The notes beneath the pieces were generated by a model. The model ran no database searches, was not told where the DNA came from, and saw only the letters and a list, made by a program, of their open reading frames with translations. The position numbers and the translations under genes are program-made. Below are positions 1 through 25,682 of a DNA stretch of 64,000 bases, piece after piece. Each line of letters begins with the position of its first letter. Position 1 is the first letter of the stretch. This DNA is from a virus (Duplodnaviria; Caudoviricetes), in the IMG/VR virus record IMGVR_UViG_3300042363_001486, one strand, 5' to 3'.

Positions 1-7
1 AAAAGTC

Positions 8-40
8 AAAAAAAGAGGCACCGTATTGTTACGATACCTC
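8..40 (-). terminator. Rho-independent terminator downstream of the AAA ATPase
   Basis: Minus-strand RNA GAGGUAUCGU-AACAAU-ACGGUGCCUC followed by U7. The two G-U pairs form only on the minus strand. Confidence 0.85.
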
Positions 41-44
41 AAAC

Positions 45-81
45 AGATTGTCTAAACAGGAGCGTTTACTACAGACAATCC
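45..81 (-). ncRNA. Candidate structured 3'UTR/small RNA hairpin exposing an anti-Shine-Dalgarno loop (GCUCCU)
   Basis: GGAUUGUCU/AGACAAUCU stem, 5-nt bulge, AAAC/GUUU stem, loop GCUCCU. Lies directly before the terminator. Confidence 0.35.
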
Positions 82-114
82 GGGTAAAAATTTATATAGT
101 CAAATACTGCACTA

Positions 115-1134
115 TCAGGCAGATTTCATACAAGTGACTTCGGTCATGGCCTTCCATTTGAGTGGAAAGCTCTTGCGTAAGTCAGCAATCTTGATTGCCA
201 TACGCAAGCTCATTTCACGGAAACGTGTGGCATTGTGTGTCATGAAGTCAATGATCTCTTCTTGCGTTTCTGCGTCAAACTCGTATTCTTCAAACAACTG
301 GCCATCATTGGCAATCTGTTTGATACGCAAGATCTTGTCACGCATGGTGTCCAAGGTCAGATCCAAGTAGTGGCAGCGTGATTGGAGAGCATCCAAGTGA
401 TCGCGCAGTTTCTGGCTTTTCATCTTGTCAAACTTCAAGTTAGTGATAAAGATCACAGTGCCGTTGAAGTTGAAGCTGTCCGGGATACCTTCGCGGCGCA
501 ACACTGAGCTGTCCGATAACCAGCTAATCTTACGCTTCTTGCCTGAGTCCAAGGCACCTTTCAACAAGTTCAAGGCCACGTCATCTAACAAGATGCTGTC
601 GCAGTCATCAAAAACCAACACACAGTTACGGTCGCTGTACTTGTAAAGTGTCTGATACAGGCCTAGTGCTGTGGCACTGCCTTTGACCACTTCGGCACGT
701 AGTCGCTTGCCGGAGATCTTGTCAAACAAGCAGGCAGCTTCTACAATTTTCTCAACACCGTAGCTCTTGCCCACACCCGGAGGACCTGACACAATCATGG
801 CACGAACATCACCGGCCACTGCAGCCTTGGTCATTTCGTCCAGGATTTCAAAACGCTCACGGATTCGAGCCATTACTTCTTCGTCACTAGCTTCTGCCGC
901 AGGTGCTGCCTTAACAGCAGATTCTGTAGTGGCATCTGCACCCATGATCTCAATTTCTTCCATGCTGTCAATTTTGACACGAGCAATACCAAACTCGGGT
1001 CCAAAAAAGCCCTTGCTGTCGATGGTAACAAAGCCACCTTTGGCACCGGCTGTATAATCTTTAACCAATTCGAAAACCTCGTTGTGTACGGGTTTATTGC
1101 GATAAACGCCGTTGCGGATGAGAACTTGGGTCAT
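115..1134 (-). CDS. AAA+ family ATPase
   Basis: Walker A GPPGVGKS, Walker B VLVFDD, sensor-1 ITN, arginine-finger region ALQSR. AGGAG RBS. Confidence 0.85.
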   Translation of the reverse strand: MTQVLIRNGVYRNKPVHNEVFELVKDYTAGAKGGFVTIDSKGFFGPEFGIARVKIDSMEEIEIMGADATTESAVKAAPAAEASDEEVMARIRERFEILDEMTKAAVAGDVRAMIVSGPPGVGKSYGVEKIVEAACLFDKISGKRLRAEVVKGSATALGLYQTLYKYSDRNCVLVFDDCDSILLDDVALNLLKGALDSGKKRKISWLSDSSVLRREGIPDSFNFNGTVIFITNLKFDKMKSQKLRDHLDALQSRCHYLDLTLDTMRDKILRIKQIANDGQLFEEYEFDAETQEEIIDFMTHNATRFREMSLRMAIKIADLRKSFPLKWKAMTEVTCMKSA

Positions 1135-1164
1135 TTACTGCTCCTGTTTTGTTAGTGTATATAC

Positions 1165-1193
1165 ATTATAGCCGGTATTGTATTACCGGTCTA
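1165..1193 (-). promoter_or_regulatory. Sigma70-type early promoter TAGACC-17-TATAAT
   Basis: 17-nt spacing; followed by leader TACACTAACAAAACAGGAG. Confidence 0.75.
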
Positions 1194-1200
1194 CCACTTT

Positions 1201-1383
1201 TTAAGTGTTGTTTTTATGCAACGTTTTTGCTGGGCCAGCAAACATTGCATCGCTCATAATACCCAGGAATTTGGCTATGCTTTCTTCACGTTCTGCTTCT
1301 GATGCATCCGGAAGAGCTTCTCTGGCAGATTCTCTAAGAGTCTCCAAAATTACACGACCGACATCTTTTGCTAGGATAGCCAT
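1201..1383 (-). CDS. Small hypothetical early protein
   Basis: 60-aa ORF with its own promoter and AGGAG RBS. Confidence 0.7.
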   Translation of the reverse strand: MAILAKDVGRVILETLRESAREALPDASEAEREESIAKFLGIMSDAMFAGPAKTLHKNNT

Positions 1384-1413
1384 TTTGTGCTCCTGTTTTG
1401 TTACTGTAAATAT

Positions 1414-1442
1414 ATTATAGCAAATTGGGTATTTCCGGTCAA
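1414..1442 (-). promoter_or_regulatory. Sigma70-type early promoter TTGACC-17-TATAAT
   Basis: Near-consensus hexamers, 17-nt spacer, leader TACAGTAACAAAACAGGAG. Confidence 0.85.
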
Positions 1443-1452
1443 CCTGTTGTTT

Positions 1453-1788
1453 TTATGCAACTTTTGGAATTTTGTACAGCAAGCCCTGTTCGCTACGTGC
1501 TTTTACATAGCCGCGTTCAGCACAAATCTCATCTAGCTCACGTACAACTTTACGGTCTCTAACTTGAGGTTTAGTAATTTTAATACTGATTATTTTTTTA
1601 CGGAAGTTAATAAACACTTGCTCGCCTGTATATGCCAGTGCAAGTATGTCACGGAATGTTTCAACATGAGCACGTTGACTCGGGGTGAACGTCATGCGAC
1701 ATTCATCGCTATAGCGTGTTGCATCCAGTGCGGCTGCATACGCAAAACGTCCAGCGGGTTTATTAGCTAAATCTTTTTCGTTGAGCAT
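1453..1788 (-). CDS. Hypothetical early protein
   Basis: 111-aa ORF with promoter and GGAG RBS. Confidence 0.75.
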   Translation of the reverse strand: MLNEKDLANKPAGRFAYAAALDATRYSDECRMTFTPSQRAHVETFRDILALAYTGEQVFINFRKKIISIKITKPQVRDRKVVRELDEICAERGYVKARSEQGLLYKIPKVA

Positions 1789-1816
1789 TTTAACTCCGTT
1801 TTGTTACTGTAAAGCT

Positions 1817-1845
1817 AGTATAGCCGAAAAAGAGTTTCAGGTCAA
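1817..1845 (-). promoter_or_regulatory. Sigma70-type early promoter TTGACC-17-TATACT
   Basis: Near-consensus hexamers, 17-nt spacer, leader TACAGTAACAAAACGGAG. Confidence 0.85.
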
Positions 1846-1846
1846 C

Positions 1847-1872
1847 AAAAAACCCCAATGTTTTGGGGCTTT
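1847..1872 (-). terminator. Rho-independent terminator
   Basis: Minus strand AGCCCCAA-AACA-TTGGGGTT then T run, just after the 1895..2416 ORF. Confidence 0.7.
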
Positions 1873-1894
1873 GATTGTGGGATTTTTACAACTT

Positions 1895-2416
1895 TTATGG
1901 CGTGGGAGGTAATTGTCCAGCTGTAATATTCAAAGTTCCTGTGAACGTTGACTCGCTGTCTACTGTATACCACCATTGTCCGTCTAACGGATTAGCAGGA
2001 TCAAAATCACGAACTCTAAGAACTTCTGCACCGTCAATTTTTGGATTGCTGAAAGGATCTGATATTATTACTCCGTTTTCGGTGTATGAGTAAAAAGAAC
2101 CGTAAACATTGGCACCGGGTGCAGTATTGCCTATTACTACATAATTTGCAACAGTATCGTTTACGATCAGTGTTCCAGTTCCATTGACAATAATTTCTAA
2201 ATTGGCAGTTCCAGAAAAATCTACTGTGCCTTCCCAGGAAAATATTGGATTGCTAAGAATAACACTGGGATCGACTTGATCTGGTTGATCTGGTAATGGT
2301 ATGTCAAGAGTCGGAATGTCTCCTTCAAAAACCACTGCACCGTCGATTTTTGCAATGATGCTAACAGGCTCACTACCGATTCCTTGGCCACATTGTTTGA
2401 AAGTTCTTACTGTCAT
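1895..2416 (-). CDS. Hypothetical protein (acidic, beta-rich; possibly virion-associated)
   Basis: 173-aa ORF with upstream TAAATA motif and AGGAG RBS. Confidence 0.65.
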   Translation of the reverse strand: MTVRTFKQCGQGIGSEPVSIIAKIDGAVVFEGDIPTLDIPLPDQPDQVDPSVILSNPIFSWEGTVDFSGTANLEIIVNGTGTLIVNDTVANYVVIGNTAPGANVYGSFYSYTENGVIISDPFSNPKIDGAEVLRVRDFDPANPLDGQWWYTVDSESTFTGTLNITAGQLPPTP

Positions 2417-2434
2417 TAAAATCTCCTGGTACTC

Positions 2435-3172
2435 TTATTTATCCAAACTATTGGTTATATTCCATAATCGCTGAATGATAGGATCTGTAACTTCGTGGGG
2501 TTTGGGTTTTCCGTGAAATATTAATATTCTTGCCTTGGGATCTAGCACTGTTCCGGCATCCGGTCGTCGATAAATTCTAGTTTTCATATCCATACCTCCA
2601 TCTTTGATTTGCCATCGCCAACTTTTGATTAATCCATCTTCGACAAGTCTAAGAACTTTTCCAGTAAGAACTGCATTAAGATAGTCTTGATCACCGTGAT
2701 ATTGTTTAACTAATGCATATATATTTTCTTCTGAAAACTTTTTCCAAATCCAATCAAAATTACTAGGATTCCAGTACATAAAACTGCTGTTTAATCCGTT
2801 CCAATTGGCTCTCCAGAGATATTTAAAATCTCTAATAGACCAAAAATAATCTGGACTTAAATCCCAAACCCAATCAATGTTGCCGGTTACTACAGTATCC
2901 AAATCGAGGTATAACATTTGCCCCACGCCGTGAATGGGATCGAACATCTGCATCTTATACCACCAGGATTTTTTAGGTCCCGCAACCCCGGGCCAGGGTT
3001 TTAACACATGCTTGATCATGTAATCAGGCACGTCTCGGGTTGGCTCAGTAAATACATGCAACCGTATATTTCTTTCGGAGTTTAATTTCAACATTGCATA
3101 AAGATTTTCAACATAATTCCAGGAGTAAGCATCTCCGTGTATCACGCAAGCACAATTTACTGTTTGAGTCAT
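2435..3172 (-). CDS. GT-A glycosyltransferase (GT8-like)
   Basis: YLDLDTV DxD motif, NSS motif, GDQDYL and FHGKPKPH motifs. Confidence 0.8.
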   Translation of the reverse strand: MTQTVNCACVIHGDAYSWNYVENLYAMLKLNSERNIRLHVFTEPTRDVPDYMIKHVLKPWPGVAGPKKSWWYKMQMFDPIHGVGQMLYLDLDTVVTGNIDWVWDLSPDYFWSIRDFKYLWRANWNGLNSSFMYWNPSNFDWIWKKFSEENIYALVKQYHGDQDYLNAVLTGKVLRLVEDGLIKSWRWQIKDGGMDMKTRIYRRPDAGTVLDPKARILIFHGKPKPHEVTDPIIQRLWNITNSLDK

Positions 3173-3177
3173 GGAGA

Positions 3178-3207
3178 TATTTATATCATTATATTAGCCG
3201 ATAAATA
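3178..3207. promoter_or_regulatory. Back-to-back T4-like late promoters (TATAAATA on minus, TAAATA on plus)
   Basis: Each motif is 5 nt upstream of a divergent ATG (3172 and 3213). Confidence 0.7.
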
Positions 3208-24278: not shown

Positions 24279-25682
24279 TTAGATTTTTGATAGATATTTT
24301 AGTCGTTCGATACTTTCACTGCTCATGTTTGACGGTTTAGTCATCATTACACCATCAGTGTCAAGATTTTCAGATTGAACAGGTTCTTCGTCGGGCGGAA
24401 CTGTAGCTGCAGTTGGATCAGCAGGAGGAGCAACTGTAAAATCTAGCTCGATACCTAATTCTGCTAACCTACTTTGTATTAAAGGTCTAGCATCGGCATC
24501 TGCATCACGTTCAGCTAACTCTGCCAGACGATCAAACAATTCGTCATCGCCAAAAATATCATACAATTGCTCAGTAGCATTGGTGGCATCTGCACCAACC
24601 GGTAAAGGCTTGCTCATTAAGAGTTTTAATTCAGCTTCAGCAGCAGGTGTGTCTGGTGTGCTCCACGTGCCTTCTGTAACCGAATCGGCCCAGTTTTCAA
24701 ATTCTGCAATTTCTTTCATGTCGGGATCCTGAGGTTGTGTTACAGCCTGAGCGGCACCGCTAAGTGCCAGTCGTGCCAACAAAGGAATAGCTTCTTCGAT
24801 CCTGCTGTCTAGACTCTGTTCGATAAACATATTTCTAATAGATTCAGCGGTAATTTCGGTTTCAGTGATTGCTGCAGGATCAAATGATGATTTTTCCTCG
24901 TGATAACCGCGTTGACTAATCATACGTTTAGCTTTGGCTTTGAGATCGCTGTAGTGTCTTATAGCCGTTTCAATCATGATCGAAGCTTCGTCTGAGAATT
25001 TTTTATTTTTAGCAGCACGAACAAACTTGGCCATGGTATTCATTTCTGAAACTATCTGACCGATATGTTGACCAAACGCATCGTACGGAGTACCCCCCTC
25101 ACTGACATGTCTAGCCATGGCGCGTCCTCCTACCATTTTGGTAAAAGGCAGTTTAAATCTTTCACCTTCGTCGGTTTCGATAAACAAGCTTTCGACATTA
25201 CGATAACGTGCTTCGCCTTCACCTAAGGGACGGCTATGTTTAATTACTAAGCGTGTTTTTTTTGGCTGATCGCTATAACTGATTTTACGTGTGCCATAAT
25301 AACCTTCGAATAAGCCTTCTTTGATAGCAGCTAATCCTTGCATGGTATACTTGAGTCGATTGAGATTTTCAACTTCGAATCCCATCAAATTGTTGCGTAC
25401 ACTGAATTGTTTGATCTGTTGTAGAAACTTGTACCATTCGTCCTTGTCTTGAGACTCCATTGTACGACCCAGGTTATCACCAAAGAATATCTTGAGACTG
25501 TTGTTGTCGCTGAACAAAATTACCACAGTGCCGTAATTTTTATTTTCGGTTTTCCAATCAAAACTAAACATCTCGGCTTCGCTGGGATCAGTGACTTCGG
25601 CTCCCTTAAAATCCAAGATATCTGGATCAAAGTCCTGTGTCACTAGTAAGTTGTAGAGTTGGGATTGTGGTGAATTCTGCAT
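24279..25682 (-). CDS. Hypothetical late/virion head-associated protein
   Basis: 467 aa after the terminase, TATAAATA promoter, several hydrophobic-x-E sites. Confidence 0.7.
   Translation of the reverse strand: MQNSPQSQLYNLLVTQDFDPDILDFKGAEVTDPSEAEMFSFDWKTENKNYGTVVILFSDNNSLKIFFGDNLGRTMESQDKDEWYKFLQQIKQFSVRNNLMGFEVENLNRLKYTMQGLAAIKEGLFEGYYGTRKISYSDQPKKTRLVIKHSRPLGEGEARYRNVESLFIETDEGERFKLPFTKMVGGRAMARHVSEGGTPYDAFGQHIGQIVSEMNTMAKFVRAAKNKKFSDEASIMIETAIRHYSDLKAKAKRMISQRGYHEEKSSFDPAAITETEITAESIRNMFIEQSLDSRIEEAIPLLARLALSGAAQAVTQPQDPDMKEIAEFENWADSVTEGTWSTPDTPAAEAELKLLMSKPLPVGADATNATEQLYDIFGDDELFDRLAELAERDADADARPLIQSRLAELGIELDFTVAPPADPTAATVPPDEEPVQSENLDTDGVMMTKPSNMSSESIERLKYLSKI

Follow-up and report, generated by a model that had tools for sequence, protein, structure and literature searches.

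A conserved hairpin at the 3′ end of an AAA ATPase transcription unit in giant T4-like phages as a putative anti-RBS element

Introduction

To our knowledge, bacterial mRNAs whose two ends pair with each other are known from very few cases (icaR and hbs), each of them described by experiment and in one species. In the T4 genes e, soc, and I-TevI, a hairpin hides the ribosome-binding site (RBS) in read-through transcripts, where the occluding strand is located immediately upstream of the RBS. In icaR of Staphylococcus aureus, a pyrimidine-rich anti-Shine–Dalgarno (anti-SD) motif in the 3′UTR is complementary to the SD sequence of the same mRNA (Ruiz de los Mozos et al. 2013, PMC3868564), and the pairing blocks the initiation complex and creates a substrate of RNase III (PMC3868564). 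OppZ and CarZ of Vibrio cholerae are autoregulatory sRNAs derived from 3′UTRs (Hoyos et al. 2020, PMC7398697); both are products of RNase E and act in trans with Hfq, and the target of OppZ is an internal cistron (PMC7398697). In Bacillus subtilis, a 14-bp interaction linking the 5′-UTR of hbs with its 3′-UTR modulates the cleavage by RNase Y (PMC5737220). Also in B. subtilis, the RBS is paired by anti-SD-like sequences placed hundreds of nucleotides downstream, whereby initiation is inhibited and decay is promoted (Gill et al. 2025 preprint, PMC12697547), and such long-range sequences are depleted from the natural genes of this bacterium, being harmful (PMC12697547).

Here we describe a hairpin found in the window, i.e., the whole 64,000-nucleotide stretch of the IMG/VR virus record IMGVR_UViG_3300042363_001486 that was analyzed. 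Like icaR, this locus has an anti-SD-like motif in the 3′UTR of the transcript that carries the target RBS itself, and the complementarity to the SD region is extended. Whereas the 3′UTR of icaR is several hundred nucleotides long and its pairing was examined by experiments, the present case concerns a dsDNA phage with a 3′UTR of ~75 nt, and the evidence is evolutionary co-variation across many lineages; the phage motif, furthermore, is carried by a covarying hairpin that immediately precedes the terminator and in some loci marks the end of a multi-gene unit. The locus resembles OppZ/CarZ in that the 3′-terminal RNA of an operon is proposed to pair with the operon's own transcript, by which translation would be inhibited in a negative feedback, but the proposed target is the first, promoter-proximal RBS and not an internal cistron as in OppZ. 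A T4-like phage with an RNA hairpin proposed to occlude an RBS is also reminiscent of gene e, soc, and I-TevI. Unlike in those genes, however, the gene downstream of the present element has no SD, which does not fit a T4-type local occlusion of that gene, and the partner RBS is located more than 1 kb upstream. In contrast to the anti-SD-like sequences depleted in B. subtilis, where recent work suggests that distant ones are usually selected against, the phage sequence is positively maintained by compensatory evolution. The principle is already known from icaR, OppZ/CarZ, and the work on long-range anti-SD sequences; we found no published description of such an element in dsDNA phages in a literature search of incomplete coverage.

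Results

The window opens within the 3′-terminal part of a minus-strand transcription unit, whose features are summarized in Table 1. The ATPase encoded there is an uncharacterized AAA protein homologous to T4 NrdC.10, and we found no solved structure among its relatives. No terminator was found between the ATPase promoter (1193..1165) and the hairpin element, and none was seen between the 60-aa gene (1383..1201) and the terminator (40..15). A strong sigma-70-like promoter combined with a ACAAAACAGGAGC-type leader was present in the window only in the three cassettes at 115..1788; most of the window is composed of structural and glycan genes with weak SDs. When positions 1..3000 of the window were searched against GenBank phages by megablast, there were no matches.

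Table 1. Features at the 3′ end of the ATPase unit (window coordinates)
Feature	Position	Strand	Description
TTGACT, -35 of the next promoter	4..9	-	Overlaps the U-run of the terminator; continuation seen in L081
Intrinsic terminator	8..40	-	11-bp hairpin 40..15, tetraloop, U7 14..8
Anti-RBS hairpin (putative)	44..82	-	11-bp outer stem CGGAUUGUCUG/UAGACAAUCUG, 5-nt bulge, 3-bp inner stem, GCUCCU hexaloop
GCUCCUGUUU, exact complement of the ATPase RBS decamer	54..63	-	Loop and inner stem of the hairpin
TATAAATT, single-mismatch variant of the T4-type late motif TATAAATA	89..96	-	Lineage-specific; doubtful relevance
AAA ATPase gene, 339 aa	115..1134	-	Stop TGA 117..115; Pfam AAA, phrog_1250
ATPase RBS, AAACAGGAGC	1140..1149	-	6-7 nt before ATG; proposed pairing partner
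ATPase promoter, sigma-70-like	1165..1193	-	TAGACC-17-TATAAT; leader ~25 nt
60-aa gene	1201..1383	-	Own sigma-70-like promoter upstream
RBS of the 60-aa gene, second AAACAGGAGC	1389..1398	-	6-7 nt before ATG

Folding of the minus-strand RNA (114..1) with ViennaRNA gave a minimum free energy (MFE) of -30.1 kcal/mol (z = -3.73), and none of 200 shuffled sequences was as stable. The predicted structure is a bulged hairpin separated by a 3-nt spacer from the terminator hairpin, in which 5 of the 11 pairs are G-C, and a terminator scan recovered the same site; the bulged hairpin and strong terminator noted after the ATPase stop in the initial annotation are hence confirmed. The same applies to the decamer of the loop, which is located 3′ of the ATPase stop (115) and 5′ of the terminator (40..15) and was described as the exact complement of the RBS at 1140-1149 and 1389-1398: AAACAGGAGC occurs exactly three times in the 64-kb window, namely at 54-63 on the plus strand and at 1140-1149 and 1389-1398 on the minus strand, against a chance expectation of 0.10, and none of 100 shuffles reached three copies. 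In Rfam, no match was obtained on the element (cmscan of 1..3000, E<=1). Apart from the element, a sub-threshold match to the rimP leader (26 bits against the gathering threshold of 47, E = 0.23) was noticed on the minus strand at 1827-1904 and is taken as chance. We also considered and dropped the readings of the element as a MotA box, a nut/boxA site, a gene on the opposite strand, and a CsrA site; there is no -10 at the right spacing and no antisense promoter, and the plus strand has no start codon after AGGAGC.

In IMG/VR, at least 599 relatives were confirmed, this number being reached among 600 pattern matches listed, and 80 of them were kept for comparison. The ATPase identity of these 80 relatives is 69-97%, and several of the loci are on contigs of 300-357 kb; the element occurs in a large family of uncultured giant T4-like phages. 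In most of the 80 relatives, the end of the ATPase unit is equipped with a module that consists, in order, of a U-rich tract, a hairpin, (U/C)UUU, a terminator, and a U-run. The hairpin has 7-13 bp, and the CUCC-type motif of its loop abuts the 3′ arm (UCUAGCUCCU, GGUUGGCUCC, UUAGCUCCU, and others). In the related loci where the element was found, a terminator is located 3′ of it, and the U-run of the terminator overlaps TTGAC of the next promoter in most relatives. In L001-L006, which are the closest of the 80, and also in L008-L015, small genes of 0.5-1.5 kb in total separate the ATPase gene from the element, and despite these intervening genes the element is still placed directly before the terminator. 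In a minority layout (L014, L017-19, L021, L023, L032, L040, L043, and L066), the motif is single-stranded and located just 5′ of a hairpin and not in its loop.

As a separate observation, the tract directly 5′ of the hairpin in ~40 loci reads (A/G)UUUUACC or UUUUUU, and (U/C)UUU directly follows the hairpin; these U-rich flanks recur across clades with unrelated stems and resemble the contexts of RNase E and Hfq modules. No such element was found after the homologue in PA5oct, the closest cultured relative of the ATPase (51% identity), and it was not found within 3 kb in L048 and L072. In these two loci (L048 2965-2990, L072 2111-2136), the leader opens with an in-frame ATG right after the -10, 8-9 codons before the SD-led start, which could represent a short N-terminal extension or a 5′-terminal AUG; leaderless ATPase genes were rejected there, given the in-frame ATG inside the leader together with a normal AGGAGCUAG-type RBS.

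The stem of the hairpin was examined in a model-fitted alignment (A3) of 22 distinct rows. In this alignment, 99% of the cells are paired and all nine pairs are compensatory, while none of 500 shuffles matched this result and only 20-43% of the cells were paired when the partners were slid by 1-3 columns. MAFFT by itself misaligned the 5′ arms and the clade of the window, and the covariance models R1 and R2, which were built from small seeds, were too sequence-specific to gather all classes of the hairpin, so that a descriptor scan and anchored counts were used instead. The scan revealed homologous hairpins in ~50 related loci with ~30 distinct stems (e.g., CGGAUUGUC, CAGUCGGCC, CUGUGAUUC, CCAUAACUC, UUGGUAGGAA, CCUGGGC, and AGAGUCGC). 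As judged from these substitutions, the hairpin is a selected structure. The check proposed in the initial annotation was thereby run: the CUCC-type loop motif is kept in relatives, and the stems covary. Because it is conserved and covarying in the relatives, the feature is far beyond chance.

The loop was furthermore found to change together with the RBS of the ATPase gene, which has its own promoter with a leader of ~25 nt in nearly all loci. At least six matched states of the RBS and the loop were identified in relatives (Table 2), with the RBS positioned 1.1-2.7 kb upstream of the loop motif; one of the six states counted has the RBS GGAGCCAACC and the 3′ motif GGUUGGCUCC. In L043, where the 5′ edge of the SD has changed from A to U, the motif shows the matching change from U to A. 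Even the SD core is affected in L065 and L075, where GGAG is replaced by GGGG and CUCC of the motif by CCC. The complementarity is 10 nt long in the window, and most relatives have 9-11 nt; the exceptions with only 6-7 nt are L014, L016, L020, and L033/L049. Its register differs by clade, on the 5′ side of the SD in the window and on the 3′ side elsewhere, and G-U pairs are tolerated.

Table 2. Matched states of the ATPase RBS and the 3′ motif
Loci	RBS	3′ motif	Pairs
Window, L001-6	AAACAGGAGC	GCUCCUGUUU	10
L008-13, L039	AGGAGCUAGA	UCUAGCUCCU	10
L064, L074, L079, many others	GGAGCCAAC(C)	(G)GUUGGCUCC	9-10
L041	AGGAGCUAAAA	UUUUAGCUCCU	11
L055	AGGAGCUAAC	GUUAGCUCCU	10
L043	UGGAGCAACA	UGUUGCUCCA	10
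L065, L075	GGGCUAGAAA	UUUCUAGCCC	10

The longest Watson-Crick run was 8.74 for own pairs and 7.09 for cross pairs (38 distinct pairs; reached in none of 5000 permutations), and the duplex energy was -16.3 and -14.3 kcal/mol, respectively (none of 10000 permutations); these permutations ignore phylogeny, and the independent evidence is therefore the count of distinct compensated states. In the core-anchored comparison, Watson-Crick pairs were present in 34 of 41 distinct pairs at column +5 (17.6 expected) and in 33 of 41 at column +7 (17.2 expected). From this co-variation across clades, the loop and the ATPase RBS very probably base-pair as RNA, which supports the long-range 3′-5′ interaction with the AAACAGGAGC leader that had been raised as one possibility in the initial annotation.

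In terms of target specificity, the ATPase RBS was the top real RBS match to the loop in 20 of 23 representative loci, including the window and L005, in which it ties with a small upstream gene; the remaining three (L009, L018, and L041) were missed by the start-codon filter of the script. The reverse strand of the downstream region was a poor control, since the downstream genes carry similar RBSs. In the complete 357-kb genome G002, the RBS of the ATPase gene ranks first among the RBS-located matches with 9 nt, as compared with 8 nt for three other genes, and a descriptor of the hairpin plus terminator gave one true instance. The octamer UAGCUCCU has a single occurrence in G001 (345 kb), which is inside the element; no AGGAGCUA RBS is present anywhere in G001, and the loop is kept all the same. 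The element is thus single-copy and syntenic, and with its best match at the ATPase RBS it is a part of the ATPase unit as opposed to a terminator motif of general use. The earlier suggestion that early leaders in general are the target accordingly gives way to the ATPase RBS specifically (23 loci and G002), and nothing points to host mRNAs, which had also been suggested as a target.

In cofolding, the element and the leader gained 5.4 kcal/mol over their separate folds. The MFE structure of the whole 1151-nt mRNA pairs AAACAGGAGC with 63..54, and pairing of the SD and the motif from end to end was also predicted in the MFE structures of 14 of 23 relatives (mRNAs of 1.1-2.5 kb), while MFE predictions for such long RNAs are unreliable. 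The inner stem of the hairpin in the window takes up GUUU of the decamer, and the hairpin must therefore partly open for the pairing.

As for the upstream flank of the hairpin, the late-promoter-like TATAAATT recorded in the initial annotation is indeed present at 96..89 but is absent at this place in relatives, its occurrence being limited to this phage and to the identical contig L081. A separately promoted sRNA is therefore not a conserved feature; in this phage, TATAAATT may give a late-made short RNA. Elsewhere in the window, the motif TATAAATA itself was noticed on the minus strand at 3185, 25696, and 41582. At the first two of these sites, ATG of a gene (3172..2435 and 25682..24279, respectively) follows after 5-6 nt, and at the third, ATG of the sheath gene follows after 28 nt. 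T4-type late promoters are therefore probably used, and some late mRNAs may be leaderless as judged from the spacing between TATAAATA and ATG.

The downstream side of the element was visible in L081 (IMGVR_UViG_3300034104_001299; 12.4 kb), of which positions 1-1058 are 100% identical to the reverse complement of 1..1058 of the window and which provides a further 11 kb past the far side of the window. TTGACT at the U-run of the terminator continues in L081 (1040-1090) as TTGACT-17-TATAAT-6-ATG of a 270-aa ORF of unknown family, which is followed by a UvsW-like helicase. In most loci (e.g., L006, L017, L040, and L069), the gene 3′ of the element is preceded by TTGACT-17-TATA(A/C)T with 5-8 nt to ATG and no SD, and this gene looks leaderless. 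In those four loci, ATG opens the conserved N-terminus of the UvsW-like helicase (MK..T.I.RDEV), and the downstream start is therefore secure.

Discussion

We propose, at about even odds, that the hairpin is a cis-encoded autoregulatory anti-RBS, which is placed at the 3′ end of the ATPase unit and acts intramolecularly as in icaR. Transcripts would start at the sigma-70-like promoter(s) with a short, unstructured, A-rich leader carrying the RBS AAACAGGAGC, pass through the NrdC.10-like ATPase gene, and end at the terminator (40..15). With the 3′ end completed, the exposed GCUCCU loop would nucleate the pairing with the RBS of the same molecule, and the 10-bp helix formed over the SD region would block the binding of 30S and may expose the mRNA to decay. 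Each message would then be translated mainly during its transcription, by which the output of ATPase would be kept low. Since pairing of the SD is incompatible with 30S binding, negative control of ATPase translation would be the most likely effect, and repression would be favored over stabilization. The strict linkage to the unit and the placement at its very end argue for pairing within one molecule.

Action in cis and in trans, nonetheless, predicts the same co-variation. It is possible, if on the unlikely side, that RNase E, or decay halted at the hairpin, frees a stable fragment of ~75-80 nt comprising the anti-RBS hairpin and the terminator, and that the fragment then acts in trans, in the manner of OppZ/CarZ, by pairing with the RBS of other ATPase mRNAs; the number of completed transcripts would then feed back on translation. 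Such a fragment explains the co-variation and specificity equally, and the U-rich flanks fit a processed, chaperone-bound RNA at least as well as the intramolecular pairing. With a double hairpin, a U-rich tract 5′ of it, (U/C)UUU separating the two hairpins, and a poly-U tail, the layout resembles the Hfq-binding module described for sRNAs. Also, the U-tail of the terminator would be the 3′ end of the sRNA with a conserved seed upstream and a target in its own operon, and the layout with a single-stranded motif puts this motif at the 5′ end of the would-be fragment. A mechanism in trans, however, does not require the strict physical linkage to the ATPase unit. The 3′ fragment might instead titrate the strong RBS shared by many early cassettes and hence serve as a general RNA for early shut-off, which in this phage may also come from the late-like promoter TATAAATT. 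The core AGGAGC is the preferred early RBS, a second early gene in the window has the identical decamer, three other genes of G002 match 8 nt, and TATAAATA precedes three genes of the window. The flanks of the motif nonetheless track the ATPase RBS, whereas other early RBSs usually match 6-8 nt; G001 keeps the loop in spite of having no AGGAGCUA RBS, and TATAAATT is not conserved. A general shut-off thus seems improbable to us.

The same pairing of the 5′ and 3′ ends might instead be protective, shielding the leader from the entry of an endonuclease and thereby stabilizing the mRNA like hbs of B. subtilis. While this would draw on the same evidence for pairing and has the precedent of hbs, the helix is centered on the SD in every clade, so that ribosome binding and pairing are mutually exclusive, and we consider protection decidedly unlikely. 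At the level of DNA, on the other hand, the two sites are one and the same sequence in opposite orientation and could be two inverted copies of one operator recognized by a DNA-binding protein; otherwise, the leader might have an inverted copy by chance or as a relic. Such readings are very hard to reconcile with a covarying stem that presents the motif, with a register of complementarity that shifts between clades, with the tolerance of G-U pairs, and with the lack of similarity past 9-11 nt, and we give such an origin hardly any weight.

The element might work as a timer of transcription completion, in which the ATPase RBS is open only while the polymerase is still on the unit; this reading is speculative, and we regard it as rather doubtful. 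It is suggested by the anti-RBS being flush against the terminator despite the inserts of 0.5-1.5 kb, as if the mRNA loops from 5′ to 3′ only when finished. Such a timer, if true, would fix the number of ATPase molecules per transcript and would represent a natural, evolutionarily proven closed-loop mRNA of bacteria or phages. The compensatory states, at least six in number and one of them in the SD core, constitute natural genetic evidence for the interaction. The element also points to the uncharacterized NrdC.10-type AAA ATPase as a gene that these phages would keep under tight dosage control. With ~75 nt for the element and ~25 nt for the leader, the system is small and portable and is therefore directly testable in reporters; it could also serve as a compact, programmable module for self-limiting expression.

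Two further observations concern the start sites and promoters of this phage group. An inverted repeat, CCGGTA-N6-TACCGG (~1171-1188, minus strand), occupies the spacer that separates the -35 from the -10 in the ATPase promoter and could be an operator, and the promoter of the neighboring cassette (1442..1414) is without this repeat. Of 125 distinct strong RBSs of L001-L081, 81 have C after AGGAG, 25 have T, 19 have A, and none has G; start sites thus avoid the canonical AGGAGG, which is generally depleted in this phage group.
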